64,000 nucleotides of DNA from Candidatus Omnitrophota bacterium (GCA_041650835.1 JBAZKL010000001.1:440185-504184); one strand, 5' to 3'; counted from the stretch's first letter, positions 7,346-49,898 are shown. Numbers and translations are program-made. Notes: generated by a model not told the origin, from the sequence alone.

Positions 7346-7466
7346 CGGTACTCCTGGTTAATGAGATAGTAGAATAGTGGACTATAGCCTATAGTCCACA
7401 GTCAACGGTCGATGGTCCATAGACTATGGACTGTTGACCATCGGCTATGGACAATTCTCAATACTC
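7346..7466. repeat. Intergenic palindrome-rich repeat (GGACTATAG / CTATAGTCCA / GTCGATGGTCCATAG module family)
   Basis: The sequence tggactatagcctatagtccacagtcaacggtcgatggtccatagactatggactgttgaccatcggctatggac contains nested short inverted repeats. Related TAGTCCATAG / GTCGATAGTC modules recur at ~39811-39870, 40141-40170, 42941-42975 and 49791-49850. Confidence 0.7.
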
Positions 7467-8276
7467 TTACTTACCTTTATTCTTACCTTTTTTCTTACCT
7501 TTACTCTCCCGCATCATATTATAATAGCCGCTTGATTCAACCCAGAAAACGAATAAATTCGCGGCATTTTCCGATATCCTCAGCCGCTTAAACGCGAAAA
7601 GATCGTCATCGGCAAAGTCCCTGCCCGGATTGGTGGCTAACGCCATTGAATATCCCGCGTCAATCACGGCCTGCCTTACACCCGGATTAAACCCGCCGGC
7701 GGGATAACAAAAAGCATTCACCGGCCGTCCCAATTTCTCTTCCAGGACTTTCCGGGAACCAATAAGTTCTTTTTTCAGTTCTTCCGCAGATGTAACGTCA
7801 ATTAAATAAGGATGATTGAGCGTATGGCTGCCAAAGGAGATCAAGCCGGAATCCCGCATAATGCTCACCTGTTCCCACGTAAGCATACCGGGCCGGCCGA
7901 TCTCGTTGACAATGAGAAAGACCGTCGCGGGGAGACCGTATTTCTTTAAAACAGGGAACGCGACGGAATAATTGTCGAGGTAGCCGTCATCGAACGTAAG
8001 GGCAACGGTGCGCTCAGGCACAGGCTGCTTATCCCTGATGAGGCGCACGATCTCATCCAAAGGCACCACGTTATAATGATTGCGTTTTAAGAACTCCATT
8101 TGCCGGTCAAATGCTGCCGACGAAACGATCAATCTGTTTCCCTGAGGGACTTGCGGCTTGACCGAATGATACATAAGCACCGGCACAACATAATGATGCC
8201 GCAGGTAATTCACCGCGAAAACCGCCGCCACGGCAATGACCGCTAAGATTACAGCTCTTTTTTTATTTCTAAACAT
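7467..8276 (-). CDS. Polysaccharide deacetylase (NodB homology domain, CE4)
   Basis: LTFDDGYLDNY and HTLNHPYL are NodB motifs, and there is an N-terminal TM anchor. The start is trimmed to MFRNKK at 8276, because the longer ORF start overlaps the upstream GT gene. Confidence 0.8.
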   Translation of the reverse strand: MFRNKKRAVILAVIAVAAVFAVNYLRHHYVVPVLMYHSVKPQVPQGNRLIVSSAAFDRQMEFLKRNHYNVVPLDEIVRLIRDKQPVPERTVALTFDDGYLDNYSVAFPVLKKYGLPATVFLIVNEIGRPGMLTWEQVSIMRDSGLISFGSHTLNHPYLIDVTSAEELKKELIGSRKVLEEKLGRPVNAFCYPAGGFNPGVRQAVIDAGYSMALATNPGRDFADDDLFAFKRLRISENAANLFVFWVESSGYYNMMRESKGKKKGKNKGK

Positions 8277-9358
8277 TCCGCGTAAACCTCTTGAGTTTGG
8301 GCCGCCATCCGGCGGTGCGAAAAATCCTTCCTGATAAAAGCCTGGGCGCGCCGGGAAAAAAGCTGCCGCTTCCCGGCATCCTGAAGCAACGTTATTATAG
8401 CACACGCCAGCCCTTGCGGGTCCGCCGGTTCAACCAAAATACCGTTATAATCGTTTTGGATCAAACTTTTAATGCCGCCGACGTTAGAGCCGATGACCGG
8501 ACACCCCAAAGCCATAGCTTCCATCAAACCCAAGCCCAGCCCTTCATGAAGCGACGGCATTACAAACACATCCATGACCGACAAGAACCGTACTGTTTCA
8601 GGGACATTAGGAAGGAAAATAACCTTATCGCTGATCGCCAGTGAATCGGATAAACTCATAAGGTCTTTTTTGATCTTCCCTTCACCGATGATCAATAACC
8701 GGGCAGATGAGATCTTCTCGCTCACCTGCTTCATCGCTTCTATCAAATAGCGGTGCCCTTTTACCTCGGAAAGCCGCGCGAGTATCCCCACGATCAAACT
8801 ATTTGCTACCCCAAGCTCTTTCCTGGTTTGAAGGCAGGTTTGCTCGTCAGAACGGCTAAAGCGCTCCAGGTCGATACCGTTATGGATAAGCCTGATACGT
8901 TCAGGGGCGAGTTTAAGATCACCCGCGAGGTGATCGCGAACCTGAGCGCTGATCGCGATACACAAACGCCCCCAACAGGGCATAAGCATACGAAAAAGCC
9001 TCTTCTTGAAAAAACCATGGCACGTCGATACATAGGGCCGGCGGCAGCTCCAGGCAAGCAGGCAGCCGACAACCTGCGTGACACGGGTCTGCGCGTGAAT
9101 AATATCAATATCGTATTCTTTAACTTTCCGCGCTAATATCAAAAAAGTCCTTAAAACCTGGAGGCTTATTTCCTGTTTTGTGTTGATCGGCACGGGTATA
9201 TACTTGATCCCCGCTTTCTGAAAGCGCGGAAGAAGGTCTCCGGGGCCGGCGGCAATATAAACAGCGTGCCCCTTTTCCTTCATCGCTGCGGACAAGGTCA
9301 AAAGGTAGCTCGAAATGCCTCCGGTATTTAAATGAGTCGTAATATAAAGGATGTTCAT
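8249..9358 (-). CDS. Glycosyltransferase family 4 (GT1 group) protein
   Basis: MNILYITTHLNTGGISSYLL at the N-terminus and a C-terminal EGLGLGLMEAMALGCPVIGSNVGG motif, which is the GT4 retaining glycosyltransferase signature. Confidence 0.8.
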   Translation of the reverse strand: MNILYITTHLNTGGISSYLLTLSAAMKEKGHAVYIAAGPGDLLPRFQKAGIKYIPVPINTKQEISLQVLRTFLILARKVKEYDIDIIHAQTRVTQVVGCLLAWSCRRPYVSTCHGFFKKRLFRMLMPCWGRLCIAISAQVRDHLAGDLKLAPERIRLIHNGIDLERFSRSDEQTCLQTRKELGVANSLIVGILARLSEVKGHRYLIEAMKQVSEKISSARLLIIGEGKIKKDLMSLSDSLAISDKVIFLPNVPETVRFLSVMDVFVMPSLHEGLGLGLMEAMALGCPVIGSNVGGIKSLIQNDYNGILVEPADPQGLACAIITLLQDAGKRQLFSRRAQAFIRKDFSHRRMAAQTQEVYAECLEIKKEL

Positions 9359-11478
9359 GCGGTTGTTTTTATGATCTGCATAAGCGCTTCTAAGACTTCT
9401 TCCGGCTTAATAAGCTCCATACACTTCAAGCTTTCGCACTTTGACCGGTAACAGGGGCTGCACGGCAGGTCTTTTCTTAAAACGGCCAGCCTTTTTGCCG
9501 GCGGGACATGGCGCCGGGGGTCCGTCGGGCCGAACAACGCGATGACAGGAGTATCAACGGCGGCGGCAATATGCAACGGAGCGGAATCAGCGGAAATATA
9601 AACATTGCACCGCTTCACCAGGCACGCCAATTGATTAACCGTCGTTTTACCGCAGCCGTTAATGAGCTTGGAATTCTTAACCGTATTCAAAAGCTTCTGA
9701 GCGAGGCCTGAGTCGGCTTCAGTTCCCGTGATCACCACGCGAATATCCCTGCGGCCGAGCTCTTCACACAATTTCACCAAATGATGGTATGGCCATGCCT
9801 TGGTTTCCCAGCGACGGCTGGCGCTCACATTGATCCCGACGACCTTCTGATGAGGGCTCATCCAATGAGAGGCAAAGAACTCCTCAATATATTTTTCATC
9901 CTGCTGAGACGGCCAAAGCTCTAAACCGCGGCCCTTAAGCTCAATGCCCAGCATCTTTAATATCCTGAACTGATGGGTCACCGGGTCCAAAGCCGGTTTT
10001 TCATCCTTAATACGGTGATTAAGCAAAAAACCGTATTTCTTGTTATCATAACCGTAGCGGTTCATCGCTAAGCTCAACCGGGAAAGAATATGGCTTTTAC
10101 GGTTATTCTGCAGGTCGATGACCACATCAAAATGCTTCTTCCTTAAGAAACGGGCGAGCCTCAGGAATCCGAAAAGCCCTTTATCCCTGTTCTTAAAATC
10201 ACACACGAGCAGCTCATCAATATAGGGGCATACCATCAAGAGCTCTTTTGACTCATCGCCTACCAGAAAACTAAGCTTGTGATTCCGGGTGAAGCCGCTC
10301 CCTGCATCACTGCTGAAGCTTTCCCGGACCGCTTTTATCGCGGCGCTCGACAGGATAATATCTCCTAAAGAACTGAATTTGATCATCAAGATCTTGAGGT
10401 CTTCCAGCGCTTCTTTATAAACACCCAGAGTATCTTCAACCATACGTTTTACGTCGTATTTTTCCTTCACTTTTTGATACGCCGCTTCCGAGAACTTATG
10501 AGCGAGCTCTTTATCGTTATATATCTTCAGGACTGCTTCAGCCATATGCACCGGGTCAGCCGGAGGCACCAGTAAGCCGGTTTTCCCGTCATCGATAATA
10601 TCAACAACGCCGCCGACGCTCGTCGCCACTACAGGCACGCCGCAGGCCTGCGCTTCGATAACCACCCTGCCGAAAGCCTCATGCGTTGTCGTCGATAAGA
10701 CCAGCAGGTCCAGGTGTTTTAAGATCTCAGGGATGTTTTTCTGGGTCCCCAGGAATTCGGTCGAATTCCAAAGCCCCGTTCTCTTGACTAACACCTGCAG
10801 CTGTTCTTTATACGCCGCCTTGGAAACAGGGGCATCGCCTACGATCCATACCTTAAGGTTCGGGACCGAGCGCATCACCCGGGCCATCGCTTTGATAAAA
10901 TACAAATGCCCTTTAAGAGGAGTGATCCTGCCGATGATCCCGACATTGAACTCCTTGTTCTTCTTTTTATCAAACGGGATAAATTTAAATTTCTCAAGGT
11001 CAACACTGCGCGGGATCAGGCGTATCCGGGAATGGGGGACGCCGAAGTCGTCGATCATATGGCGGCCGATCACGTTACTGGGGACAATGACCCTCTTTGC
11101 CCAACCCATCACATAGCTTAGCAGGTGCTTTTTATAATACCCGTGACAGGTAGTGATAAACACTTTACGGGTCTTTCGGCAGGCAAAATAAGCGATCCAG
11201 GCGGGGATACGGGAACGGGCATGGACGATATCCACCTTTTCCTTCTCGATGATCTCGACCAATCGGGGGACCATCTTAACCATTTGAAAGATCGATTTCT
11301 TGTGTACGGGAAGGCAATAATGGAGGGCACCCGCTGCCTCAAGGTCTTTTACCAATTCACCGCCGTTTGAAACCACCACGACTTTATGGCCCAGCTTAAC
11401 CGCGTATTTTGCCAGGTCCACGGTGCCGGTTTCAACCCCCCCTACCCTCAATTCAGGTAATATTTGCAGTATATTCAT
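9355..11478 (-). CDS. Bifunctional glycosyltransferase: N-terminal GT4 domain fused to a C-terminal GT9 heptosyltransferase-like domain
   Basis: Residues ~1-350 are GT4 (MNILQILPELRVGGVETGTVDL ... EAFGRVVIEAQACGVPVVATSVGG). Residues ~360-707 are GT9 (LKILMIKFSSLGDIILSSAAIKAVRESF ... SADSAPLHIAAAV). Confidence 0.8.
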   Translation of the reverse strand: MNILQILPELRVGGVETGTVDLAKYAVKLGHKVVVVSNGGELVKDLEAAGALHYCLPVHKKSIFQMVKMVPRLVEIIEKEKVDIVHARSRIPAWIAYFACRKTRKVFITTCHGYYKKHLLSYVMGWAKRVIVPSNVIGRHMIDDFGVPHSRIRLIPRSVDLEKFKFIPFDKKKNKEFNVGIIGRITPLKGHLYFIKAMARVMRSVPNLKVWIVGDAPVSKAAYKEQLQVLVKRTGLWNSTEFLGTQKNIPEILKHLDLLVLSTTTHEAFGRVVIEAQACGVPVVATSVGGVVDIIDDGKTGLLVPPADPVHMAEAVLKIYNDKELAHKFSEAAYQKVKEKYDVKRMVEDTLGVYKEALEDLKILMIKFSSLGDIILSSAAIKAVRESFSSDAGSGFTRNHKLSFLVGDESKELLMVCPYIDELLVCDFKNRDKGLFGFLRLARFLRKKHFDVVIDLQNNRKSHILSRLSLAMNRYGYDNKKYGFLLNHRIKDEKPALDPVTHQFRILKMLGIELKGRGLELWPSQQDEKYIEEFFASHWMSPHQKVVGINVSASRRWETKAWPYHHLVKLCEELGRRDIRVVITGTEADSGLAQKLLNTVKNSKLINGCGKTTVNQLACLVKRCNVYISADSAPLHIAAAVDTPVIALFGPTDPRRHVPPAKRLAVLRKDLPCSPCYRSKCESLKCMELIKPEEVLEALMQIIKTTA

Positions 11479-19984: not shown

Positions 19985-20165
19985 ATGTCAATAGTTATCA
20001 TGCTCGGCTGCGCAGCACCCCAGCTTAATAGGAATGCTGGGTGCGCCCGTTCCGGGCAGCAAGCGCGCACCGGCGCAATTCCGCGGCAGAAAGCCGCGCA
20101 CCCGCCTCTCCAATAAGGCGGGGTGCCGATTAGCGCCGGGTGTAATCAGTTATCGTTGGGCAAAG
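19985..20165. repeat. GC-rich structured interspersed repeat, family B, copy 1 (GCACCCAGC...GCTGGGTGC / GCGCAATTCCGCGGCAGAAAGCCGCG / CAATAAGGCGGGGTG modules)
   Basis: It contains several perfect short stem-loops. The same ~150 nt element recurs at 23815-24044 (same orientation) and 40655-40828 (reverse complement). Confidence 0.8.
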
Positions 20166-20189
20166 TCATCGATAACCGACTATTACTTC

Positions 20190-20904: not shown

Positions 20905-21075
20905 TATATAATGTTAATGATAAAGTCTAAAGTCTAAATAACAAAGGAAGATTAAAGGTTAAAGGTTAAAGGTTAAAGGTTAAAGGTTAAAGGTTAAAGG
21001 TTAAAATTTAATCTTTATTCTTTGAATTTCCTTTGTTATTTAAGCTTTAAACTTTAGACTTAACTTATTATATCT
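20905..21075. repeat. Hairpin interspersed repeat, family A copy, with an expanded (GGTTAAA)7 heptamer tract in the loop
   Basis: Arms gtctaaagtctaaataacaaaggaa ... ttcctttgttatttaagctttaaactttagact flank a 7x AGGTTAA tandem tract at 20953-21005. Confidence 0.85.
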
Positions 21076-21171
21076 GATTCCCGGATGTTCAGATCACCCG
21101 ATCTCCTAATCCCTGATTACCTGTTCTCCGGATAACCGACCGTCGACTATAGACCCGTTGCGACCTGTGCC

Positions 21172-22989: not shown

Positions 22990-23418
22990 AACACCCCGTC
23001 TTGTTAAGATTATTGAAAAACAATACGTTAATTTTAAAGGATAAAGGTTAAATATCAAAGGAAGGTTCAAGGTTTAAGACTAAAGAATTAATCTTAAACT
23101 TTCCTGCCTGCCGGCAGGAACCTTTATTCTTTGAATTTCCTTTGTTATTTGAGCTTTGAATGAACCATGCCTCAGGCGCTTATGGTTCATTCATCCCGAG
23201 CTCTGTCGAGGGGTTAAACTTTGGACTTTTCCGTCACCCTGATATCCAGAATTTATGTAGTTGGGTTAGGGTTAAGATTTTAGTTTGGTTGTTAGGAATG
23301 GTTGTTAGGTTACTAAAAACCCAACTACTCAACCAAACTACCAAACTAACCGCTTAACCATGACCTAACTACTATTTAGGTCAAACCAAGGAATATACTC
23401 TATCACTTTTTCCTGAAA
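22990..23418. repeat. Composite repeat island: a family A hairpin copy (with CCTGCCTGCCGGCAGGAACC core), plus a GAACCATGCCTCAGGCGCTTATGGTTC...CCCGAGCTCTGTCGAGGGG module, plus GGTTGTTAGG / CCTAACTAC modules
   Basis: It lies between doxX and malQ. The second module recurs at 58491-58560 and, reverse-complemented, in CCCCTCGACAAGCTCGGGG at ~39785 and ~40115. Confidence 0.8.
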
Positions 23419-23814: not shown

Positions 23815-24044
23815 GCTTAACCTCCTGCCGCACAAAGCGGCACACCGGCGCAATCCCGATCTGCGCCGGGTGTAACTTGCATACACATACCAACGCAATT
23901 CCGCGGCAGAAAGCCGCGTACCGGCGCAATTTTGCCGCAGTAAGCGGCATACCCCGCCATTCCAATAAGGCGGGGTGCAATCTGCGCCGGGTGCTCGGCA
24001 TACCCAGCAATCTCATATGCTGGGGTGCTCTTAAGCGTTGGGCG
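23815..24044. repeat. GC-rich structured interspersed repeat, family B, copy 2 (longer, with internal partial duplication)
   Basis: It contains gcaattccgcggcagaaagccgcg, ccattccaataaggcggggtg and ctgcgccgggtg twice. It generates overlapping spurious ORFs on both strands. Confidence 0.8.
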
Positions 24045-39101: not shown

Positions 39102-39665
39102 CTATTGCCAAAGGCCGCGCTTATTTTCGCGCGCGTCCTGGTATAATTTCAGGAATAGATCAGCATATTTCACGTTTGGAGGATATGTCATTAAAGAAGC
39201 ATACCCCTGTTTTACGATCTCGGCATTTATAAAGGTACCATCCGGTAAATAAGCATACCCCAAGAGCCTTCCGTATTTATCCTTTTTTTCCACGTCAAAT
39301 TCCAATTTGACGCGCTTTCCTTCCACCAGGCCCCGGGTAAATTGATACGAGCGCTTCCCCAATTTCTTAATGGTTTCAACGTTCTGGCTCATCCGCTGGC
39401 TATCCCGGTATAACTTTTTAGACTCATGCATCTCAGGAGTATCGATGCCGATAAGCCTAACCCGTTGCCCGCCTTCTAGTACCAGAGTATCGCCATCAAC
39501 CACTCTATCTACAAGTATATCATAATACTTATCTTCAGCGCCAATTGGCGCGTTCGCCTTATTACTGCTTTGATTACCTATCCAACCTGCCTGCTCACAA
39601 GCAGCAAGGCAAAGCGAAAGAAAGATCGCGGATAAAAGTAACCCTTTCTTAAACATCTTTTTCAT
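39102..39665 (-). CDS. Secreted thermonuclease (SNase/micrococcal nuclease-like) lipoprotein
   Basis: Signal peptide with lipobox (LAAC). VVDGDTLVLEGGQRVRLIGIDTPE, YGRLLGYAY and LMTYPP are SNase-fold signatures. Confidence 0.8.
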   Translation of the reverse strand: MKKMFKKGLLLSAIFLSLCLAACEQAGWIGNQSSNKANAPIGAEDKYYDILVDRVVDGDTLVLEGGQRVRLIGIDTPEMHESKKLYRDSQRMSQNVETIKKLGKRSYQFTRGLVEGKRVKLEFDVEKKDKYGRLLGYAYLPDGTFINAEIVKQGYASLMTYPPNVKYADLFLKLYQDARENKRGLWQ

Positions 39666-40170
39666 TCTTAACTCCTTTATTACACTATATTTACTTAGAA
39701 ATAATTATTGGTGATCCGCTTATCCGGGTACCCCAGTCGCCAGAGCCCCAGTCACAAGTCGCAAGACACAGGTCACATGACACCCCTCGACAAGCTCGGG
39801 GCAAGCAAGTAGTCGATAGTCTATAGTCAATGGTCGATAGTCCATAGTTATAGGTTATGGTTAAGGTTAAGATGTTAGTTTAGTTGTTAGGTTAAGGAGT
39901 TGGGTTATTTAACGTTAATGATAAAGTTTAAAGCTCAAATAACAAAGGAAATCCAAAGAATAAAGTATAAAGTTTAAAATTTCCTGCCTGCCGACAAACA
40001 GAAAACTTTAAACTTTAACCTTCCTTTGTTATTTAGCCTTTACCATTTAGACTTAACTTGTCATATACCTAACTACCAATAATAAAGTCACAAGACACAG
40101 GTCGCAAGACACCCCTCGACAAGCTCGGGGCAAGCAAGTAGTCGATAGTCCACAGTCCATAGACGGGAGA
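39666..40170. repeat. Composite repeat island upstream of the helicase locus: CCCCAGTCGCCAGAGCCCCAGTCACAAGTC module, TAGTCCATAG modules, GTTAGGTTAAGG module, a family A hairpin copy (39901-40060), then a ~95 bp segment (40061-40166) that reappears as a direct repeat at 42881-42975
   Basis: Direct sequence comparison of 39901-40166 with 42717-42975. Confidence 0.8.
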
Positions 40171-40436
40171 AACTTTACGGTTTTTGCTTTAAGCGCACAT
40201 TTGAAAACTTTTGCCAAAAGTCTGCGAGGAATTACGAATCGCCGTAGCACTCGCGACCACGAAAGTCAACTGGCGAAGGCGATGAGTAAACCGAAGCAGA
40301 CGGCAAAATGTTTTTTGTGCGCGTAAGCAAAAAGCGTAAAATTTCCCGGCTACTACCGACTAGTTGCAACATGCGACTGTTCAAGTTTCTCAATATTCAC
40401 TTGCACGCTCACTTGGCACTATTCTATTCTTTTTTA

Positions 40437-40466
40437 TTAGATAAATCAATGGTTTTGGACTATAAT
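40437..40466 (+). promoter_or_regulatory. Candidate sigma70-like promoter (TTAGAT-18-TATAAT) upstream of a small ORF and the helicase
   Basis: The sequence is ttagataaatcaatggttttggactataat, followed by GGAG and an ATG at 40497. Confidence 0.3.
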
Positions 40467-40654
40467 AGTGATGCCACAACTTATGGAGCGAATGAAATGA
40501 GCGAACATAAGTTGTTTGACCGAACTATCCTGCCGAGTACGTCAAAATTATGGAACAGAATTTTGACGTATCTTACGAGGCAGGATGCATATTCGGTTAT
40601 CGGAGGCTCGGTTATCGCTAACCGAGAACCAAGACCCGAGAACCAATAAGCAAA

Positions 40655-40828
40655 AACTGACAACACCCGGCGCAGATCGCACCCCGCCTTATTGGAATGG
40701 CGGGGTATGCCGCTTACTGCGGCAAAATTGCGCCGGTGCGCGCTTCCTGCCCAGCAAGGACGCACCCAGCATTCCTATTAAGCTGGGGTGCTGCGCAGCC
40801 GAACACCAAGAACCGAGCACCGATAACC
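40655..40828. repeat. GC-rich structured interspersed repeat, family B, copy 3 (reverse-complement orientation), abutting the helicase start
   Basis: The reverse complement aligns with 19990-20150. Confidence 0.8.
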
Positions 40829-42703
40829 GTGATATACGACCGCTTTCAAGAAGAAGCCATAAACTACATTAACCAGGGATACTCGGTAATTGTATCAGCT
40901 CCTACCGGCGCCGGAAAAACTGCGATCGCCGAGCATATTATTGAGAATGCCTTACGGCTTAAGCAGGGAGTCATCTATACCGCTCCCATCAAAGCCCTTT
41001 CCAATCAGAAATTCCGTGATTTCCAGCATCAATACCGGGAAGATATCGGCATTTTAACCGGCGACGTATCGTTGAACGCCCATGCCCCGGTACTGATCAT
41101 GACCACAGAAATATTCCGCAACAAGATCCTCGATGAACCCGAGAGCCTGAAAAAATATTCGTGGGCGATCTTTGACGAGATCCATTATATTGACAACTAT
41201 GAACGCGGGACTGTCTGGGAAGAATCCCTGATATTCCTGCCGAAACACATCAATCTGCTGGGTCTTTCGGCGACCATACCGAATATCAAGGAATTCGCCC
41301 AATGGATCGAATCGATCCATGAAAAACCGATCAAGATCGTCATTGAAGACAAGCGCCCGGTGCCCTTGCATTTTTTCTTCCAGTGCCAGAACCAGGTGGT
41401 CGATAAGATCGAAGCGCTCAGGAGAATCCGCTTCAGCAAATTCAACAAGCTCGTCTCCCTGGTCAATTATATCCAAAGAAATAACGGGCTTCCCTGCATC
41501 TATTTTGTCTTCGGCAGGAGAAAAGCGGAAGACCTCGCTTATGAATTATACAGCTATAATTTTCTCACCCCCGAGGAACAGGCGAAGATCACTTTACTCT
41601 TTGATTCTCTCTGCGAACGCTTTGATTTAAAGAACGAAAAAAGCGCTGTTGCCATGTACCCGCTGGTCAAACACGGCATTGCCTTCCATCACGCGGGCAT
41701 GCTTCCGACATTAAAAGAAGTGATCGAACGGCTTTTTACCAGCAAATTGCTGAAAGTGATCTTTACCACGGAGACCTTTGCCCTGGGCATTAACATGCCC
41801 AGCCGCAGCGTCGTATTCGATGAACTGCGTAAATTCTACGGCCGCTACGTGCGCAACCTCAAAACCCGGGATTTTTACCAGATGGCCGGCCGCGCGGGAA
41901 GGCGCGGCATGGATAAAGAAGGTTTCGTCTATGTCCGGGTGAATTTGAACAGGATCAAGCATGAAGAAGTAAGGAATATCCTTTACGGCAAACCCGAAGA
42001 GGTCAAAAGCCAGCTTAACAATTCCTACGCGACGATCCTTAACCTCTACCAGCGCTATAAAGACGAACTGTACCGGATATACTCCTTCTCATTCCATTAT
42101 TTCCAGACCAAAAAATACCAGCAAAAAGAAGCCCTCAGGTTAATGCAGGCAAAGCTGTCGCTGTTGAAGGATTCAGGATATATTGCCGACGAAGCCTTGA
42201 CCGCCAAGGGGCAATTTGCCAAGAATGTTTACGGCTACGAGCTGCTTTTATCCGAACTCTTCGCGCGCAACTGTTTTGAAGAGCTCGACGAATTCGGGCT
42301 GGGGATACTGGCGGCGGCAATCGTTTTTGAACCGAGGAAAAACCAGCAGGCCCATCAACTTCCAAAGGCAGCGCGGGGGATACAGGAACTCTGTGAAGAC
42401 GCCTTTGAAAAAATATACCACAAAGAATCGAAGTATAAGATTTACCCCATCAGCAAAGCGCCGTTTTTCCACCTGGCAAAACCAATGGAATGCTGGCTGC
42501 AGGGTATGCAATTCAGCAAGATACTACAATACAGCGATACTGATGAAGGTGAAGTCGTGCGCTATTTCAGGATGAGCATCCAAATACTGCGGGAAATCAA
42601 CAAAACCCCCATCTCCCCTGCCTTAAAAGAAAAGATCAAAGAAACGATCCGTGTTATCAACCGGGGCATCATCGACGCGGAAAAACAGCTCAGAGAAAGC
42701 TAA
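40829..42703 (+). CDS. Ski2-like superfamily II DEAD/DEAH-box helicase (HelY/Mtr4-like core)
   Basis: Q-motif (FQEEAI), motif I (SAPTGAGKTAIAE), Ski2-type motifs (YTAPIKALSNQKFRDF, ILTGD, FDEIHYI, LSATIPN) and RecA2 motifs (HHAGMLP, MAGRAGRRG). The six-frame ORF begins at 40697 inside a repeat and no in-frame ATG precedes the Q-motif. A GTG at 40829 is proposed as the start (uncertain). Confidence 0.7.
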   Translation: MIYDRFQEEAINYINQGYSVIVSAPTGAGKTAIAEHIIENALRLKQGVIYTAPIKALSNQKFRDFQHQYREDIGILTGDVSLNAHAPVLIMTTEIFRNKILDEPESLKKYSWAIFDEIHYIDNYERGTVWEESLIFLPKHINLLGLSATIPNIKEFAQWIESIHEKPIKIVIEDKRPVPLHFFFQCQNQVVDKIEALRRIRFSKFNKLVSLVNYIQRNNGLPCIYFVFGRRKAEDLAYELYSYNFLTPEEQAKITLLFDSLCERFDLKNEKSAVAMYPLVKHGIAFHHAGMLPTLKEVIERLFTSKLLKVIFTTETFALGINMPSRSVVFDELRKFYGRYVRNLKTRDFYQMAGRAGRRGMDKEGFVYVRVNLNRIKHEEVRNILYGKPEEVKSQLNNSYATILNLYQRYKDELYRIYSFSFHYFQTKKYQQKEALRLMQAKLSLLKDSGYIADEALTAKGQFAKNVYGYELLLSELFARNCFEELDEFGLGILAAAIVFEPRKNQQAHQLPKAARGIQELCEDAFEKIYHKESKYKIYPISKAPFFHLAKPMECWLQGMQFSKILQYSDTDEGEVVRYFRMSIQILREINKTPISPALKEKIKETIRVINRGIIDAEKQLRES

Positions 42704-43333
42704 AAGTCCAGCCATAGGTTAAAGTTTGGGTTATTCAACGTTAATGATAAAGGTTAAAGTCTAAAGAACAAAGGAAATTCAAAGAATAAAGGTTAAATTT
42801 TAAAATTACCTGCCTGCAGGAACCTTAAACCTTTAAACTTTAATCTTCCTTTGTTATTTATCCTTTAGACTTTAGACTTAACTTGTCATATACCTAACTA
42901 CCAATAATAAAGTCACAAGACACAGGTCGCATGACACAAGTAGTCGATAGTCCACAGTCCATAGTTATAGGTTAAAGAGTGGGGTTATTTAACGTTAATT
43001 TAAAAGTCTAAAGTTTAAAAAACAAAGGAAATCCAAAGAATAAAGTATAAATTTTAAAATTACCTGCCTGCAGGAACCTTTAAACTTTAACCTTTAATCT
43101 TCCTTTGTTATTTATCCTTTAGACTTTAGACTTATCTTACTATTTATTATTTTAAACCAAACTCCTTTACCCAACTACTAAACAAACTTCTTTACCCTTA
43201 CCTAACTACCAATATTAAAGTAGCATGACACAAAACACAGGTAATCGATAACGATAAATTTAGGTTTGCGACTTGAAACATGTGACTTGAGACTGGGACG
43301 ATGGGACTCTGGAGACTGGGGCACCCGTGACTT
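42704..43333. repeat. 630 bp non-coding repeat island with two family A hairpin copies (42717-42890, 42967-43140), a direct repeat of 40061-40166, and a reverse-complement copy of the CCCCAGTCGCCAG...GTCACAAGTC module (43240-43330)
   Basis: Direct comparison. It lies between the helicase stop and the Macro-NUDIX stop. Confidence 0.85.
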
Positions 43334-44275
43334 TTATCTTTTGATTTTTTTTGATCTTATATAATCGAGGATGATCTTCTTGTGGTCGAAGGCAAAGGAT
43401 AACGCGTTGATCTTACGCAGCGGAACGACTTTGACTGCCGCGGCGTCATCACCCGCGCGGGGAACACCCGAGGCTCTGGCTGTGAAAACCGTGCCTATGG
43501 TGTGAAAGCGGGGGTCACGGCCGGGATCGGAATAAGTATGGAACTGTTTTACATCGAACAGGTCCAATCCGGTTTCTTCTTTAGCTTCACGCACGGCCGC
43601 TTTTTCTAAACTCTCTCCATAATCGACAAACCCCCCTGGCAATGCCCAGCCAAACGGAGGGTTGCTTCTTTTTATTATCACGATACCTTCTTTTAACTCG
43701 ATGATCGCGTCCACGGTAACAAAAGGGCTTTTGAGCTTATTGACAATATAATCCAGGTAGCCGAACATATTGCGCTCAAAAGCATCAAAGGTTTCTTTAT
43801 CCGGCAGGCAAAAAATTATTTCTTTTAAAGAAGGCTGCGGCTCTTGCCGTATATACCGATAGACTTCCTGGGCCATGATCTTTGCGCAGGCAAGCGGGCT
43901 TACCCCTTTTAAACCATCCCCTAAAGAAGGGAAAGCAATAGAGATCATTTTTAACTGCTGCGCCAGGCGCAAACAATTACCGGCAGCACTTCTTATTTTC
44001 ATTTCATCGCTCCGAAGCGCCCCATTCGCCGTCACCGCATGTATCACCGCCCGGGCTTTCAAACTCCCGCTATCCGTCAAACAAACCTCTCCCGCGGGAA
44101 ACGGGCTCATCTTGATCGCCTGATCTTCTATGATCCTGCCGCCTTTTCTTTTTATTGACGCCGCAATGCCGCGGTTCATCATAAGGCTCTTATCGGCAAC
44201 AGACACAAGCGCGTCCGCGGCACAAGCGGTAATATCACCCTGTATCACAGAAATATTAATATTATTGATCTTCAT
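43334..44275 (-). CDS. Macro domain (ADP-ribose-1''-phosphate/O-acetyl-ADP-ribose processing) fused to a C-terminal NUDIX hydrolase domain
   Basis: The N-terminal ~170 aa form a macro fold (VIQGDITACAADALV...NAANSSL-like...AFPSLGDGLKG). The C-terminus has a Nudix box (GGFVDYGESLEKAAVREAKEETGL). Confidence 0.75.
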   Translation of the reverse strand: MKINNINISVIQGDITACAADALVSVADKSLMMNRGIAASIKRKGGRIIEDQAIKMSPFPAGEVCLTDSGSLKARAVIHAVTANGALRSDEMKIRSAAGNCLRLAQQLKMISIAFPSLGDGLKGVSPLACAKIMAQEVYRYIRQEPQPSLKEIIFCLPDKETFDAFERNMFGYLDYIVNKLKSPFVTVDAIIELKEGIVIIKRSNPPFGWALPGGFVDYGESLEKAAVREAKEETGLDLFDVKQFHTYSDPGRDPRFHTIGTVFTARASGVPRAGDDAAAVKVVPLRKINALSFAFDHKKIILDYIRSKKIKR

Positions 44276-46055: not shown

Positions 46056-46171
46056 ACTTTAAGTATAACACAACCAACGACTATTTCCCACACCAGTAGC
46101 GGTATTCGGTGTTCGGTTATCGGCCGGCATGGTCACCGAAAACCGAACACCGATAACCTATAACCGAAAAA
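46056..46171. repeat. Intergenic inverted-repeat element (GGTGTTCGGTTATCGG ... CCGAACACCGATAACC)
   Basis: Related CGAACACCGATAACC / GAACCAAGACCCGAGAACC motifs occur at 40600-40640 and 40795-40828. Confidence 0.6.
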
Positions 46172-46588
46172 TTACTCCCCTATTATCTTGACCAATACCC
46201 GCTTTTGCCTCTGTCCGTCAAATTCACCGTAAAAAACCTGTTCCCACGGCCCAAAGTCAAGCTTCCCCCTGGTTATCGCGGCCACTATTTCTCTTCCCAT
46301 GACCGTTCTTTTCAAATGAGCGTCCCCATTATCCTCGCCTGTCCGGTTATGCTGATACGCGCCTTTACCGTAGGGAGCTAACTTTTCCAGCCAAGCGCTG
46401 AAATCTTTATGCAATCCGCTTTCATCATCATTGATGAAAACGCTCGCGGTAATATGCATGGCATTGACCAGACAAAGGCCTTCTTGCACGCCCGATTTTG
46501 TAACGGCATCATCAATTAAAGCGGTAATATTAATAAATGCCTGGCGGGTTTTTGTATTAAAATTCAAATACTGAGTATAGGATCTCAT
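46172..46588 (-). CDS. YjbQ/UPF0047 family protein (secondary thiamine-phosphate synthase-like)
   Basis: 138 aa with the conserved YjbQ pattern ([14 protein letters not shown] ... HLKRTVMG...). Confidence 0.75.
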
Positions 46589-46590
46589 CT

Positions 46591-47334: not shown

Positions 47335-47612
47335 TTAAAATTATAATGCTTCTTCACTACTTCTTTAATATCCCAGACGCACGACAAACCCCGGGGAAAG
47401 CTCACGAAATCGCCCTTTCCAAAACTCACCTTTTCCCCATCGGAAGTTTCCACAACCGCTCTCCCCGAGAGGATATAACACTCCTCAATGCTGTCATAGT
47501 GCCACTTAAACCGGGAAGCCTCTTTTTCCCATACCGGCCAGCTCAAAACTCCGCGCTCATTTAACTCATCCTGCGTCAATTTTTGCACTTTGATTTCCAT
47601 AGGCACCTCCAC
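47331..47612 (-). CDS. Cupin-domain protein
   Basis: 93 aa small-barrel cupin_2-like motif pattern (G..V.W..K...W.Y...E.CYIL.G...V). Confidence 0.55.
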   Translation of the reverse strand: MEVPMEIKVQKLTQDELNERGVLSWPVWEKEASRFKWHYDSIEECYILSGRAVVETSDGEKVSFGKGDFVSFPRGLSCVWDIKEVVKKHYNFK

Positions 47613-47614
47613 GC

Positions 47615-48130
47615 TTAAACCTTATTCTGATAGATCCCCTGATAACCATGCGATGTTTCATTGATGCCCTGAAAAATAAGCTGCACCAGGCGCGCGTTCT
47701 GTTTGATCCTCGCCCCGCGGGTATTTTCAACGACTAACACAAACTCGCTTCTCCCGCTAAAACCCGCGTCCCAAACTCCGGTATGCGTCAAGATCCCCAT
47801 CCGTAAAAGCGAACTCCGGGGAAAAGAAACAGCCAGGATATCTTTAGGCAAAGTTACGGTCTCATTGGTCGTTATTTTATAAATGCCTTTTTTTAAATGC
47901 CACCAGCCGAATTCGTCCCGCTTATTCTTTTTACGGGGAATAACCTCTTTACACGCGGGGAGCTTTCGCTCCTTATTGGAAAAATCAAGGCTTCCAGCCG
48001 AAGAAAACGAATGGATACAGGCGGCAGTCAGGTCGAATCCATTAGGAGTAAGCTGGGTGTTTAAATCGATATACCCGGCAACCAGGCGCTTTTCTTTGAT
48101 CAATTTCCCGATTTCCTGACGATTAAGCAT
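47615..48130 (-). CDS. dCTP deaminase / dUTPase-fold (Dcd family) protein
   Basis: PRSSLLRMGI and VWDAGFSGRSEFVLVVEN...ARLVQLIF match Dcd trimeric dUTPase-fold motifs, 171 aa. Confidence 0.6.
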   Translation of the reverse strand: MLNRQEIGKLIKEKRLVAGYIDLNTQLTPNGFDLTAACIHSFSSAGSLDFSNKERKLPACKEVIPRKKNKRDEFGWWHLKKGIYKITTNETVTLPKDILAVSFPRSSLLRMGILTHTGVWDAGFSGRSEFVLVVENTRGARIKQNARLVQLIFQGINETSHGYQGIYQNKV

Positions 48131-48131
48131 C

Positions 48132-48530
48132 TTATACCCCTTTGATCTGCTGAAGCGCTAATTTCATCCTGACCTCATCCGGTATCGGGCTCGGCTTAAA
48201 GGCCTTATCGATACAAACCAGGAGCGTCCTGGCTTTGGCGATCAGCTGGTTATTCTGATTACGGAGCTCGTTCTCAAACCACATCTTAACACCGGTTATC
48301 TCGGAGACCGAGGTTTTTACCTCCAATATATCCCCGTAAACCGCCGGCAGCTTATAATCGATCTCCTGCCGAGCCACGACAAACAAGATCCCTTGAGCCT
48401 CCAGGTCCTTAATAAACAAGCCTCGCTCCTCAAAATATCCGGTCCGCGCCTCTTCAAGGAACTTCAAATAGTTAGCGTAATAAACAACGCCTCCGCAATC
48501 AGTGTGATGGTAGAAAATCTTTACTTTCAT
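48132..48530 (-). CDS. Acyl-CoA thioesterase, 4HBT/YbgC family (hotdog fold)
   Basis: MKVKIFYHHTDCGGVVYYANYLKFLEEARTGYFEERG carries the YbgC-type catalytic Asp/His context. Confidence 0.75.
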   Translation of the reverse strand: MKVKIFYHHTDCGGVVYYANYLKFLEEARTGYFEERGLFIKDLEAQGILFVVARQEIDYKLPAVYGDILEVKTSVSEITGVKMWFENELRNQNNQLIAKARTLLVCIDKAFKPSPIPDEVRMKLALQQIKGV

Positions 48531-48546
48531 CGTATCAACTCCTTTT

Positions 48547-49695
48547 TTACCCCGATATTCTTTTCATGATAGCGCTGCGCTGTGAATAAGAGATCTTCAT
48601 TTTCTGAACGATGCGCGCAAAAAACTGGATAGTTGAATCATAGGTCTTCAGGTCAACCGGATACGGTGTCGCGTCTTTTCCTCCGTGAGCGAAGGAATAC
48701 CGGGCAGGGTCTTCATGCGAAGCAGGAGCGCCGTAGATCACTTCAGACACCAGCGCCAATGCCCGCATCGTCTTAGGGCCGACCCCTTCAAGCGATAAAA
48801 GTTTCTCGTAATTCTCCGGCTTTCGTTCGCAAACCTTTAAGAGGATCTTCTCCAGATACGCGCTCTTTGAAAAATCTTCCGCTACGACCGGATGCCGGCG
48901 AAATTCCGTATTTTCAAGATTCAGCAACGTTGTCGTAGCGCCCTCTCCGGCAACCGACACCATTTGTGACAGATTCGAAGTATGCTTTCTGATGATCCGG
49001 ATATCTTTCATCAACCCCTGATAACTGCCCTGCACCAGTTCAGTGCTCATCGCGCGGGTCTTCTGGCTGTCTTTAGCGGTAAGGTCCAGAACAGGCACAC
49101 GCACCTGGCTGATAATGCCGGAATGCGGCTCACACACCAGATCAGTGATCTTATTGGAATACCAATGATACCGCCGGGCAGTCTGATTCCCGGTATTCAT
49201 CCCCTGCTGGACAACAGACCAGGTCCCGCCCCGGGAAAAGAAGAAACTATGATGATAGATCTGAAAGCCGTCCTGAACAAGCGCGCTATCTACCTTTGCC
49301 GCCATTTTTGAATTATACACCAGATTATCGACTTTGGGCGTCTGCAGGCTCAGGATATTTCCCCAGTTTTTTATTTCATCGGGGGTCTTACGGGAAGTCT
49401 TTCCTTTACCGCCGCAGATAAAAATACCCAATGTCCTTTCATTACCGCGTATCGCCTCTTTTAAAGCCGCGGTCAGTATCGTCGTTAAACCGGAGGCATT
49501 CCAGTCAAATGCCAGGACCGTCCCCAAAGATTGGAACCAAACAGGATCTGCGATCCTGCGGATGAATTCATCAGGCCCGTATTCCTCGATGATCACTCCC
49601 ATCATCTGCCGCCCCAATGAAACCATCCGCTCAAAAAGCCAGCGGGGGCATTTACCGCTATCTAACGTGAAAGTCGCTATTCCTCGGTGGATCAT
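48547..49695 (-). CDS. Conserved hypothetical protein, DUF763-like
   Basis: 382 aa with an N-terminal ...GKCPRWLFERM... pattern recalled for DUF763-family proteins. No catalytic motif is assignable. Confidence 0.4.
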   Translation of the reverse strand: MIHRGIATFTLDSGKCPRWLFERMVSLGRQMMGVIIEEYGPDEFIRRIADPVWFQSLGTVLAFDWNASGLTTILTAALKEAIRGNERTLGIFICGGKGKTSRKTPDEIKNWGNILSLQTPKVDNLVYNSKMAAKVDSALVQDGFQIYHHSFFFSRGGTWSVVQQGMNTGNQTARRYHWYSNKITDLVCEPHSGIISQVRVPVLDLTAKDSQKTRAMSTELVQGSYQGLMKDIRIIRKHTSNLSQMVSVAGEGATTTLLNLENTEFRRHPVVAEDFSKSAYLEKILLKVCERKPENYEKLLSLEGVGPKTMRALALVSEVIYGAPASHEDPARYSFAHGGKDATPYPVDLKTYDSTIQFFARIVQKMKISYSQRSAIMKRISG

Positions 49696-49898
49696 GGATA
49701 TGAAGTTTAGTGTTACAAAAAAATTTATAAATTACGGGTGCCCCAGCCTCCAGTCGCCAGCGTCCCAGTCACAAGTCTCATGCCTCATATCGCAAATCTA
49801 TAGCTATTTATTGCTATGGACCATGGACCGTAGACTATCGACTACGCGTGTCATGTGACTTGTGTCTTGTGACCTATTTCCCCGGACTTGTCGAAAGC
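49696..49898. repeat. Composite repeat: CCCCAGCCTCCAGTCGCCAGCGTCCCAGTCACAAGTC module plus CTATGGACCATGGACCGTAGACTATCGACTA module plus GTCATGTGACTTGTGTCTTGTGAC
   Basis: It shares modules with 39731-39800 and 43240-43330. It generates the spurious N-terminus (MSCDLCLVT) of the antisense ORF at 49848. Confidence 0.75.

Follow-up and report, generated by a model that had tools for sequence, protein, structure and literature searches.

Mirrored stacks of degenerate heptanucleotide arrays in intergenic regions of a Candidatus Omnitrophota bacterium

STRR sequences in the strict sense belong to (heterocystous) cyanobacterial hosts and are built from the units CCCCAGT, TTGGTCA or CAACAGT. Very small dispersed repeats (SDR) of Nostoc/Anabaena were reportedly described by Elhai et al. 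in 2008. In filamentous cyanobacteria, 7-bp STRR hairpins are known (PMC2670836). The P6b hairpin of the Nostoc tRNA-Leu intron is formed by pairing of degenerate heptanucleotide repeats, which differ in copy number and through indels of elements outside the heptamer motif (PMC3488679). Heptanucleotide repeats are in excess in many bacteria, and this has been ascribed to polymerase slippage, as Mrazek 2007 is cited in later papers (PMC4692102, PMC4679880), and a binding protein of the cold-shock-domain or S1-domain type has been proposed for TAACTGA repeats (PMC4679880). REP units, in turn, are imperfect palindromes of ~35-40 nt with a GTAG (or CGTC) tag at one end (PMC3733652).

We analyzed a 64,000-nucleotide stretch of DNA (the window) from a Candidatus Omnitrophota bacterium, in which a first-pass annotation had noted short palindromic modules shared by seven intergenic regions. 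All of these were found where it had placed them, and, compared with shuffles of the window, they recur far more often than chance would allow, across several intergenic regions and in either orientation. Their basic unit, however, is a degenerate tandem heptamer rather than a palindromic module: some copies do form palindromes, but the common denominator is a 7-nt period, the modules being runs of 3-8 units. Autocorrelation gave a lag-7 self-match of 0.383 in intergenic DNA against a background of ~0.26, and period 3 only in coding DNA. There are 21 period-7 segments in the window (989 nt in total; mean of block shuffles, 0.34), whereas lags 5, 6 and 8-12 yielded just 0-5 segments each, and TRF also reports period-7 or period-14 arrays. 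All 21 segments lie in intergenic gaps, dispersed over many loci, with those at 40614 and 40802 situated 5' of where other assemblies place the helicase start.

The heptamers fall into six families, A (CCCCAGT), B (CACAAGT), D (CGATAGT), E (CGGTTAT), F (TAAGGTT) and G (TAAAGTC), the A unit being what we take to be STRR1 of Mazel et al. 1990. An array consists of ~3-8 units of one family, with neighbouring units differing by 1-2 bases. Allowing up to 3 mismatches and using dinucleotide-preserving shuffles of the window as the expectation, we found 17 matches to the D pattern AGTCGATAGTCYAYRGTC, which is the TAGTC/GTCGAT module (7386-7446, 21138, 39811-39849, 40140-40164, 42942-42966 and 49819-49843; 0.07 expected). 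Pattern B, GTCACAAGACACAGGTC, had 5 matches (0.04 expected), A, CCCCAGTCGCCAGNGYCCCAGTCACAAGTC, had 2 (39731 and 49748; 0.00 expected) plus a degenerate reverse copy at 43296-43328, and E, CGAACACCGATAACC, had 7 (1.4 expected). An assembly artefact was ruled out as the source of the arrays, which are the same in three independent assemblies: over them, those from ENA and Logan match the window at 100% or 99.97% identity; ENA contigs change partner at 39881-39892, within an F array. No unit-number variants were seen, since all assemblies compared are of the same strain and identical across the arrays. A CRISPR array, in which identical repeats of 24-48 nt alternate with unique spacers of similar length, was likewise rejected, because the 7-mers here follow one another directly, without intervening spacers. 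The window yielded no tRNA or tmRNA, and a search of the entire window against Rfam 15 gave no match at gathering threshold; two sub-threshold miRNA-precursor matches within 39600-43400 (22.6 and 22.4 bits; gathering 107 and 95) were taken as spurious.

Table 1. Heptamer arrays and associated hairpins in the window (a prime marks the reverse orientation).
Feature	Position	Strand	Context
D-D' hairpin, RGTCNAY heptamers	7378..7455	.	Begins ~12 nt past stop codon of polysaccharide deacetylase (7467..8405), transcribed (-) strand
Small E-E' pair (CAGTTATCG...CGATAACCG)	20140..20189	.	Borders GC-rich multi-hairpin repeat
Reverse heptamer run E', D', B'-like (GATAACC GACCGTC GACTATA GACC..GCGACCTGTG)	21075..21171	-	3' of G palindrome, centre near 21010
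C-type hairpin variant CCCGAGCTCTGTCGAGGGG	23195..23213	-	This and a 36-nt hairpin (23158-23193) both inserted in 3' arm of G palindrome
F-F' palindrome, stand-alone (GGTTAGG/GGTTAAG-type, then CCTAACT-type units)	23257..23385	.	
A array (GGGTA CCCCAGT CGCCAGA GCCCCAGT CACAAGT)	39726..39760	+	Outermost layer; SNase start codon 61 nt downstream
B array (CACAAGT CGCAAGA CACAGGT CACATGA)	39752..39784	+	
C hairpin, 19-mer + CAAGC	39783..39806	+	23-nt block, present at 39783 and 40112, missing at otherwise matching junction 42936
D array (AGTCGAT AGTCTAT AGTCAAT GGTCGAT AGTCCAT)	39806..39849	+	
F array (TATAGGT TATGGT TAAGGT TAAGATGT TAGTT...)	39850..39905	+	
G palindrome (TAAAGNN / AACAAAGGAA units)	39906..40059	.	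Centre near 39990; inner core of stacked modules
F' (GTCATATACCTAACTACCAATAATAAA)	40060..40086	-	Short reverse arm
Second B-C-D block	40087..40164	+	B 40087-40112, C 40112-40135, D 40136-40164; without inverted partner
E-E' pair (CGGTTAT ... AACCGAG)	40590..40650	.	5' of GC-rich multi-hairpin repeat
E' array (CGAACAC CAAGAAC CGAGCAC CGATAAC)	40800..40828	-	Directly 5' of helicase start as called in ENA and JGI assemblies
D/F remnant	42704..42735	+	Right after helicase stop codon; leads into G palindrome 42736-42884
F', then B, D and F	42885..42990	.	F' 42885-42910 reverse; forward B 42911-42936, D 42937-42966, F 42963-42990; no C where B meets D
Largest composite, reverse arm	43140..43328	-	F' 43140-43220, mixed 43221-43269, B' 43270-43295, A' 43296-43328; ends 5 nt from Macro-NUDIX stop codon
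E-E' hairpin, 68-nt block	46104..46171	.	Fits exactly between YjbQ stop codon and spacer conserved in relative L246
Composite without F and G	49737..49880	.	A 49737-49779, B 49767-49793, degenerate centre, D' 49814-49846, B' 49848-49875
C, exact reverse-complement copy	58527..58545	-	Beside 36-nt hairpin 58491-58526, 3' arm of G palindrome

Families that occur together keep one order, from the outside to the centre A, B, D, F, G and then, mirrored, G', F', D', B', A', with GC-rich outer layers and AT-rich inner ones around AT-rich palindrome centres. Arrays 5' of a centre are always forward and those 3' of it reverse, so that either strand gives a forward arm, a loop and a reverse arm. Order and polarity hold at every centre (~7424, 21010, 23322, 39990, 42814, 43068, 46129 and 49808), all nine G palindromes run + and then -, and the layers D, E and F also stand alone as hairpins at 7378, 46104 and 23257, respectively. 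As to this strict polarity, slippage alone gives no account of arm direction. The modules are not freely mixed and matched in different orders and orientations, as had been proposed; going inward the layers always run A, B, (C), D, F, G, going outward they mirror this series, and the side of the centre sets the orientation. The B-C-D order was found again in the relative L246, and a B-like to D order in both a Ratteibacteria MAG and another Omnitrophota genome, where it runs on into F-like units. Random slippage would not predict such a fixed order or its recurrence beyond this genome, which suggests either that a composite ancestor was copied or that some constraint acts.

The idea of a limited set of modules holds, in that a few short families do recur. 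C (CCCCTCGACAAGCTCGGGG), by contrast, stands outside the heptamer system: it is an independent hairpin of 19 nt that sits within the arrays as an insertion, between B and D where these layers include it. It and a 36-nt hairpin are the non-heptamer hairpins nested within the arrays. Three exact copies of C (39783, 40112 and 58527(-)) compare with 0.02 expected, the element is present in >120 metagenome contigs, and its hairpin combines a conserved 11-nt loop with a covarying 4-bp stem. A reverse-complement module placed by the annotation at 23200 and 58530 is exact at the latter site (58527(-)), but the copy near 23200, at 23195-23213, is set apart from the consensus by an indel. C could not be assigned a target duplication or terminal inverted repeats.

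Comparison with relatives of the same gene order bears on how the arrays arose. Against 21 period-7 segments in the window, there is 1 in L246 and none in L247 or L248, whose amino acid identities to the window are 92%, 80% and 77%, respectively. These genomes differ from the window by entire arrays, not by unit number, and the presence/absence boundaries against L246 are clean; the composite at 49737..49880, for example, is missing there, and the PK-DUF763 spacer is 6 nt. Absence at the same sites in relatives of 77-92% identity argues for recent spread, and absence in such close relatives indicates that the arrays are dispensable. In behaviour they would thus be closer to selfish or neutral DNA than to conserved regulators. 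Long near-identical composites stand at different loci: a duplicated unit of ~255 bp accounts for part of the sharing between 39731-40170 and 42911-43333, and an alignment of 39888-40112 with the ENA copy of 42715-42937 (L001, which is 99.97% identical to the window) shows 88.5% identity over 227 nt. TRF also finds a perfect run, (AAGGTTA)x8.3, at 20948-21005, which looks like recent slippage.

We consider these modules to be, with somewhat better than even confidence, STRR-like or long-simple-sequence-repeat degenerate heptanucleotide arrays that have grown by slippage, inverted duplication and inter-locus copying. Slipped-strand mispairing of the 7-nt unit would lengthen or shorten arrays, inverted duplication would give rise to the arms, and composites of ~50-255 bp would be copied whole among intergenic regions, whether by recombination, gene conversion or a transposition-like insertion without regular target duplication. 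This proliferation would be recent and limited to this lineage.

Alternatively, the composites may be non-autonomous mobile elements (MITE-like or like cyanobacterial very small dispersed repeats) that inserted as units, the heptamer period being merely a feature of their arms, a reading to which we give about one chance in four. It fits the near-identity of 30-255-nt composites at separate loci, the clean boundaries against L246, a terminus GGGTRCCCCAG common to three copies, the layer order shared by other Omnitrophota, and the finding of C, and of the 36-nt hairpin and C as a pair, each in two unrelated contexts. Transposition is hinted at by one G-palindrome insertion with GTTCCTCC on each side, a possible 8-nt duplication, but the E hairpin insertion at 46104..46171 relative to L246 came without target duplication. 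Moreover, termini and length are inconsistent, from single-layer hairpins of 68-78 nt up to >400 nt, terminal inverted repeats distinct from the arrays are not present, and the perfect 8-unit run speaks for growth at the site itself. Neither a transposase nor a RAYT or reverse transcriptase turned up in the 64-kb window, and flanking loci likewise yielded no transposase. A MITE with defined length and terminal inverted repeats was rejected, as the copies vary in length between 68 and >400 nt and lack two-sided common termini.

The arrays had also been likened to BIMEs, and they are indeed intergenic, partly palindromic and combinatorial-looking, with GTAG preceding D arrays at 39809, 40138, 42940 and 49844 (minus strand). 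This GTAG, however, simply belongs to the ATAGTC repeat itself. A REP-like unit of ~35 nt is missing, as are Y and Z units that alternate in orientation between defined linkers, and neither the window nor ~18 kb of extra flanks contained a RAYT gene. A period-7 tandem structure is not known as a BIME property, and we consider BIME/REP-type mosaic elements a highly improbable explanation.

A further feature of the arrays is their position relative to genes. D-type arrays occur in many phyla; an inverted copy, where there was one, lay downstream in 45 of 45 cases, and 39 of the 53 arrays that have a co-oriented upstream gene start -25 to +15 nt from its stop codon. Unpaired arrays after a stop codon are sense in 24 cases and antisense in 5. 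Within the window, arrays begin 0-12 nt past the stop codons at 7467, 42703, 43334 and 46172, and ~25 nt downstream of that at 49899. Forward arrays close at least two reading frames in 102 of 120 cases, whereas read in reverse they leave every frame open in 62 of 120. Stems of the cross-phylum D hairpins are stable (median 33 pairs, -42 kcal/mol), and in the window folding was much better than that of shuffles at 7378..7455 (-33.7 kcal/mol, z -4.2), 46104..46171 (-38.9 kcal/mol, z -5.0) and 42704-43333 (z -5.9), with z -1.9 at 49737..49880; the array without a partner at 39726-39860 folded no better than shuffles (z 0.0).

Stop-codon adjacency, sense bias, inverted partners, frame closure and stem stability would all be expected if the paired arrays were selected cis-elements at transcript ends, acting in both directions as stem-loops that lack U-tails and halt or stabilise transcripts, and with a stop-codon-rich 5' arm that would prevent ribosomes from melting the stem. 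We regard this as possible but rather doubtful. The A and B families have few stop codons, 16 of the 45 hairpins adjoin no called stop codon and keep the same polarity, and the arrays are missing at orthologous gene ends of relatives and are therefore not required. A terminator role had been suggested earlier, but a consensus scan of the window lends it no support (18 sites versus 14.7 expected, none coinciding with A-F arrays), and the A-B-C-D block at 39726-39849 lies in the divergent promoter region 39666-40828, not at a gene end. A U-tract (at least 6 T in a 12-nt tail) follows just 3 of 45 cross-phylum D hairpins; with this and the unenriched scan, intrinsic (Rho-independent) terminators were ruled out. 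Under the preferred reading, that of heptamer arrays spread by slippage and copying, the arrays may be tolerated chiefly just 3' of stop codons, where two-armed arrays would give the transcript end a long, stable stem-loop without a U-tail that could shield 3' ends or insulate adjacent genes. These are the weakest steps of the scheme, and a role of the hairpins at transcript 3' ends, at the RNA level, is a conjecture from sequence.

The regular 7-nt spacing, the conserved cores (RGTC in D, AAAG in G) and the strict polarity relative to the centre could also reflect iteron-like sites at which a protein with a 7-nt footprint binds DNA or RNA, such as a cold-shock-domain or S1-domain protein. Six families would, however, require several specificities or one very loose one, no candidate protein was identified, and the arrays are dispensable in relatives, which makes such sites improbable.

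Among known systems, enterobacterial BIME/REP elements are similarly intergenic, palindromic, combinatorial in look and often located after genes, but the unit here is 7 nt and the grammar a nested mirror instead of alternating orientation. C resembles SDR/MITE elements as a ~19-23 nt block in unrelated contexts, including heptamer arrays and other repeats, yet differs from them as a hairpin with a conserved loop and covarying stem that is widespread in metagenomes. The GGGAATC (Xanthomonas) and GGGGAYT (Nostoc) repeats are also intergenic heptamer arrays with some inverted pairs, and differ widely in length and sequence at the same sites of closely related species (PMC4692102); they are G-rich, quadruplex-capable and of a single motif per genome, in contrast to the A-F arrays, which have no run of four G-tracts. 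The repeats of Mrazek et al. 2007, as represented in PMC4692102 and PMC4679880, share the excess of 7-nt tandem repeats in intergenic DNA, the patchy phylogeny and the proposed slippage, but those surveys count perfect or near-perfect single-motif runs, whereas the runs here are degenerate, come in several families, and are inverted and nested. The TAACTGA direct repeats known from Beggiatoaceae, cyanobacteria and Bacteroidetes (PMC4679880) are likewise intergenic heptamers in unrelated phyla, oriented relative to genes, with stop codons in the forward orientation and an open reverse, and their reverse complement CAGTTAT resembles the E units CAGTTAT/CGGTTAT at 20147, 40595 and in L209. They lie mostly just 5' of start codons, however, and are hardly ever inverted (1 of 170 sets indirect), while the arrays in the window are found mainly behind stop codons, and inversion is frequent among them.

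With cyanobacterial STRRs the arrays share tandem degenerate 7-nt units in non-coding DNA and arms that pair into hairpins (PMC2670836, PMC3488679), and the insertions of C and the 36-nt hairpin parallel the non-heptamer indels of the Nostoc intron (PMC3488679). Strict arm polarity and stop-codon adjacency were not found described for STRRs in the limited literature searched. The arrays are not STRRs in the strict sense, as the host belongs to the Omnitrophota, the heptamers are mostly different and CCCCAGT units occur in the A family only. Unlike cyanobacterial STRRs, they comprise six families layered around AT-rich palindromes in one unvarying order from the outside to the centre, and they represent an elaborate new instance of a kind of repeat known chiefly from cyanobacteria.

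All seven intergenic regions in which the first-pass annotation had placed palindromic modules were inspected together with every intergenic gap of the window, and the modules were present there. With up to 3 mismatches allowed, and with dinucleotide-preserving shuffles of the window as the control, all five were over-represented in the window: 17 matches versus 0.07 expected for the D pattern AGTCGATAGTCYAYRGTC, 5 versus 0.04 for the B module GTCACAAGACACAGGTC, 2 versus 0 for the A 30-mer, 7 versus 1.4 for the E 15-mer, and 3 exact copies versus 0.02 for the 19-mer of C, a separate hairpin. The C copy annotated at 23200 exists, but as a one-indel variant (23195-23213).

The actual repeat unit is a heptamer. 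TRF detected many arrays of period 7 and period 14 in the window, exclusively in intergenic DNA. Intergenic self-identity at lags 7, 14 and 21 was 0.383, 0.344 and 0.313, on a background of ~0.26, and the coding DNA of the window displayed period 3 alone. A sliding test found 21 period-7 segments in the window, amounting to 989 nt or about one fifth of its intergenic DNA. The mean was 0.34 segments in the locally shuffled window, and the other lags from 5 to 12 gave 0-5 segments each. The feature is genuine; its structure is clear and does not reflect chance. We rejected a universal "RGT" anchor, which would have united all heptamer families with the short tandemly repeated repetitive heptamers (STRRs) of cyanobacteria and the TAACTGA repeats, since an unbiased scan of all arrays ranked AA/AAG first and GT sixth of ten strand-symmetric dinucleotide classes (0.43); it survives just as a remark on families A, B, D, E and F. 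The window's best candidate for a variable-number locus is a perfect (AAGGTTA)x8.3 run (20948-21005, 98% matches) in the 5' arm of a G palindrome.

The modules had been described as combining in free order and orientation. We mapped every A-D, F and G match and then checked each against the sequence. Orders and orientations are not free, since forward copies in the window invariably lie 5' of a palindrome centre and reverse copies 3' of it, with the layers A, B, (C), D, F, G mirrored as G', F', D', B', A'. The layers grade from GC-rich on the outside to AT-rich on the inside. G palindromes follow the + then - order in nine cases out of nine, and one B-C-D block (40087-40164) is partnerless. 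A basis for this polarity in a purine-rich or G/C-skewed 5' arm was considered and is contradicted by families A and E. The sharing of modules between regions is genuine, but part of it is plain duplication of a ~255-bp composite (B, D, F, G palindrome, F'), present as 88.5% identical copies at 39888-40112 and 42715-42937. These direct copies bracket the helicase gene (40829-42703) and could favour its deletion or duplication.

Heptamer families, layers around palindrome centres, and hairpins in the window (+, forward copies; -, reverse copies)
Feature	Units or sequence	Positions or forward arm (nt)	Reverse arm (nt)
A in register	CCCCAGT CGCCAGA GCCCCAGT		
B in register	CACAAGT CGCAAGA CACAGGT CACATGA		
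D in register	CGATAGT CTATAGT CAATGGT CGATAGT CCATAGT		
E in register	TTCGGTG TTCGGTT ATCGG		
F in register	TATAGGT TATGGT TAAGGT TAAG...		
G in register	TAAAGTC, TTAAAGG and AACAAAGGAA units; inner AT-rich palindrome		
C, 19-nt element	CCCCTCGACAAGCTCGGGG	39783-39801, 40112-40130, 58527-58545, 23195-23213	
Centre ~39990		A+ 39731, B+ 39758, C+ 39783, D+ 39811, F+ 39879, G+ 39941	G- 40020, F- 40067
Centre ~43068		B+ 42912, D+ 42942, F+ 42963, G+ 43021	G- 43099, F- 43169/43200, B- 43270, A- 43296
Centre ~49808	without F or G	A+ 49748, B+ 49767	D- 49819, B- 49857
Centre ~21010		G+	G-, D- 21138, B- 21155
Single-layer hairpin	D	7378-7455	
Single-layer hairpin	E	46104-46171	
Single-layer hairpin	F	23257-23385	
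36-nt hairpin	GAATGAACCATGCC..GGTTCATTCA	23158-23193	
36-nt hairpin	GAATGGGGCATGCC..GCCTCATTCA	58491-58526	
GC-rich multi-hairpin repeat	GCACCCCGCC..GGCGGGGTG, GCGGCAGAAAGCCGC, ...	19990-20150, 23899-24044, 40655-40805	

We lean towards an STRR-like origin by slippage plus copying. The arrays would grow by slippage, their arms would form by inverted duplication and the composites would then be copied between loci, while the hairpins may have some role at transcript ends. Inverted pairs fold far better than shuffled sequence at 7370-7462 (z -4.2), 46090-46171 (z -5.0) and 42704-43333 (z -5.9); the decayed pair 49740-49885 folds weakly (z -1.9) and the one-directional array 39726-39860 has no structure (z 0.0). 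Arrays begin 0-12 nt past the stop codons at 7467, 42703, 43334 and 46172 in the window and ~25 nt downstream of the one at 49899, and the large block 39726-40164 sits between divergent genes. These folds and positions bear on the proposal that the arrays are an element selected for at transcript ends, as does the finding that no folded array in the window has the intrinsic-terminator form of a stem with a U-tract. We regard this proposal as doubtful; it overlaps the STRR-like reading and does not exclude it. Classic intrinsic terminators find no support in either the terminator scan of the window or the tails of D hairpins from other phyla.

Three open reading frames of the window deserve comment. 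The 3' end of the deacetylase gene consists of a 12-nt tandem repeat (CTTACCTTTATT x3.2, 7470-7507) encoding a Lys/Gly-rich tail (..RESKGKKKGKNKGK, then the stop), which suggests that repeat DNA was absorbed into the coding end. A 113-aa frame in the long helicase-SNase spacer (40308-40649) has no Pfam match, is uncalled in the same strain's ENA assembly and has no comparable call in the shorter helicase-SNase spacers of relatives; it is probably not a gene. The helicase frame of 668 aa starts too far 5', running through E arrays, and the gene is called as 624 aa elsewhere.

The C element forms a 23-nt block at the B/D junctions 39783 and 40112, is missing from the otherwise matching junction 42936, and lies reversed in the 3' arm of two G palindromes, beside a 36-nt hairpin (23158-23213, 58491-58545). 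The exact 19-mer had more than 120 matches in JGI metagenome contigs, in highly varied contexts and with unconserved flanks among the matches listed. A loose core, GAGCNNGNCGA, was swamped by high-GC coding matches, and the tighter core GAGCNTGTCGA was the informative query for flank pairing. Among its 42 non-seed copies, four flanking positions were paired in 79-88%, shuffled controls averaging 46-65%; CG, GC, TA and AT pairs all occurred, and the fifth position was conspicuously unpaired (17%). Because the flanks pair this often and with several pair types, C is a small hairpin whose 4-bp stem covaries and whose 11-nt loop is conserved (consensus GAGCYTGTCGA). The family is cosmopolitan. We found no Rfam family for C, and a motif-string search of the literature returned no report of it.

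In the metagenome contigs that carry C (L126-L245), it is found in some cases as inverted pairs flanked by TGACA and apparently also lies in frame within IleRS and LeuRS genes (L214, L225). The two copies of the 36-nt hairpin that accompanies reversed C differ on both stem sides in ways that preserve pairing. Another repeat, GC-rich and made of consecutive short hairpins, is edged by E-type heptamer arrays in the window and is also found in the related genome L246 (1363-1430, 6400-6600). The C-bearing contigs, 628 kb of diverse metagenomic DNA picked solely for C, contain 55 period-7 arrays with many other heptamers, where the shuffle rate of the window predicts ~3; they include TAACTGA-type (L178) and CAGTTAT-type (L209) arrays and inverted pairs (L143, L222, L132). 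Heptamer arrays and small GC-rich hairpins seem to co-occur in repeat-rich environmental genomes.

The arrays are reproduced base for base in the ENA assembly ERZ27247363 and in a Logan assembly, and with three assemblies concordant an assembly artefact is a negligible concern. The ENA assembly places 1-39892 and 39881-64000 of the window on separate contigs (868 kb and 354 kb; L123 and L001), switching inside an F array. We rejected a chimeric window at 39833-39892 because synteny in relatives supports its helicase-SNase junction. The local order is kept in four relatives, with the two genes adjacent in three and one extra small gene between them in L248, and therefore the junction in the window represents the ancestral order. 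It follows that the ENA contigs are the odd ones, and they look mis-joined or rearranged at the F-array repeat (39881-39892), an example of the breaks and false joins that heptamer repeats cause in metagenome assemblies.

Gene order is conserved in the related genomes L246 (92% amino acid identity for DUF763), L247 (80%) and L248 (77%), but the repeats are not. Compared with the 21 period-7 segments in the 64 kb window, 21 kb of L246 contains 1, and L247 and L248 have none; the gain is recent and lineage-specific. The spacer between PK and DUF763 measures 203 nt in the window versus 6 nt in L246. The E hairpin makes up a cleanly delimited block of 68 nt between the YjbQ stop codon and the spacer conserved in L246, and comparison of the window with L246 revealed no target duplication there. 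The G palindrome at 50931-51214, missing from the orthologous L246 spacer (8839-8971), is bounded on both sides by GTTCCTCC, a possible 8-nt target duplication. Such clean gains and the possible duplication speak for a MITE-like mobile element; the E boundary without a duplication speaks against one, as does the absence of any transposase, RAYT or reverse transcriptase gene from the window and its nearby flanks. We consider such an element unlikely, and it too overlaps the STRR-like reading without excluding it. The likeness to BIMEs drawn in the first-pass annotation does not hold, the chance that these are BIME/REP sequences being negligible. The genes of the window are ordinary housekeeping genes, and no Rfam family, tRNA or tmRNA was found in it. 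Its DUF763 protein has an identical NCBI counterpart labelled "MAG: Candidatus Omnitrophota bacterium".

In L246, B, C and D follow the helicase stop codon directly and in the same order, and the junction that carries C in the window has a C-like hairpin there too. D is also preceded by B-like units in the Omnitrophota MAG PPR_0478 (L004), where F-like units come next, and in a Ratteibacteria MAG. This shared order makes the composite older than this species, but its proliferation here is recent.

Arrays of D extend across phyla. The exact pattern is found in at least 120 stretches of GTDB genomes, a raw count that we set aside as weak evidence because ~139 chance matches to the D 18-mer are expected in 596 Gb, so that array context alone counts. 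Among the 120 matches listed, 90 lie in arrays with 4 or more units, and the number is 99 when matches with an inverted partner are counted as well. Their hosts include many Bacteroidota (Cytophagales, Chitinophagaceae, Mucilaginibacter, Pedobacter, Saprospiraceae), Omnitrophota, Planctomycetota, Acidobacteriota, Verrucomicrobiota, Chlamydiota and others. Carriage of the arrays by phages was dismissed, as only 2 IMG/VR contigs had the D pattern.

The polarity recurs in these listed matches: an inverted copy within 200 nt lay downstream in 45 cases and upstream in 0, including 16 hairpins, likewise downstream, that do not adjoin any called stop codon. Genes in other phyla were identified by our own crude ORF calls, so the cross-phylum counts are approximate. 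The array started within -25 to +15 nt of the stop codon in 39 of the 53 listed matches with a co-oriented upstream gene, and 19 arrays began before the end of the stop codon and thus overlap or contain it. Unpaired arrays after a stop codon were sense in 24 cases versus antisense in 5. The listed hairpins have a median of 33 pairs and -42 kcal/mol, without U-tails. Read forward, 102 of the 120 arrays shut at least 2 frames; read in reverse, 62 of the 120 shut none.

Strict polarity is the sole feature for which none of the simple models accounts. Part of it could plausibly be explained by a selective filter, whereby only the stop-rich orientation could abut or overlap a gene end, and stops ahead of the stem would bar ribosomes from it. 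A further, improbable reading is that RGTCNAY-type arrays are a cross-phylum, polarity-constrained gene-end module, beyond mere slippage debris. The stop-rich forward arm could begin at the stop codon or even supply it, and a paired forward arm could always precede the reverse arm, giving a long stem-loop without a U-tail that is the same from both strands. Such a module could be made by a dedicated process (e.g., unit addition at 3' ends) or be selected as a ribosome-proof transcript end or insulator. If this were true, no known form of it would be more elaborate than the multilayer A-B-D-F-G composites of Omnitrophota. The arrays would gain interest should the cross-phylum rule of polarity and stop-codon adjacency reflect function or a dedicated generating mechanism. 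Polarity and stop adjacency of D arrays, common to Bacteroidota, Planctomycetota, Acidobacteriota, Omnitrophota and others, already provide testable rules.

Heptanucleotide arrays have been known from cyanobacteria since ~1990, and in known systems their origin and function are still open. In filamentous cyanobacteria, 7-bp STRRs are common and able to form hairpins; their function is unknown, and proposals include transcript stability or translational coupling (PMC2670836). In the Nostoc tRNA-Leu intron, the P6b hairpin consists of degenerate heptanucleotide repeats and varies both in copy number and through indels of elements other than the heptamers (PMC3488679). Heptanucleotides are cited as the most abundant class of long SSRs in many bacteria, possibly through polymerase slippage (Mrazek 2007, as cited in PMC4692102 and PMC4679880). 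Xanthomonas GGGAATC repeats form inverted pairs and vary between species (PMC4692102), TAACTGA repeats occur in Beggiatoaceae, cyanobacteria and Bacteroidetes (PMC4679880), and Geobacter metallireducens has several heptamer families (PMC2700814). We found no published report of heptamer arrays in Omnitrophota and, in the accessible literature on heptamer repeats, no description of layer order, arm polarity or stop-codon adjacency. To these systems the present locus adds the Omnitrophota, a fixed layer order with strict polarity, and clean gain and loss between congeneric genomes. The arrays of the window thus belong to the same class as the known intergenic heptanucleotide arrays, but the phylum is new and their grammar is unusually explicit.
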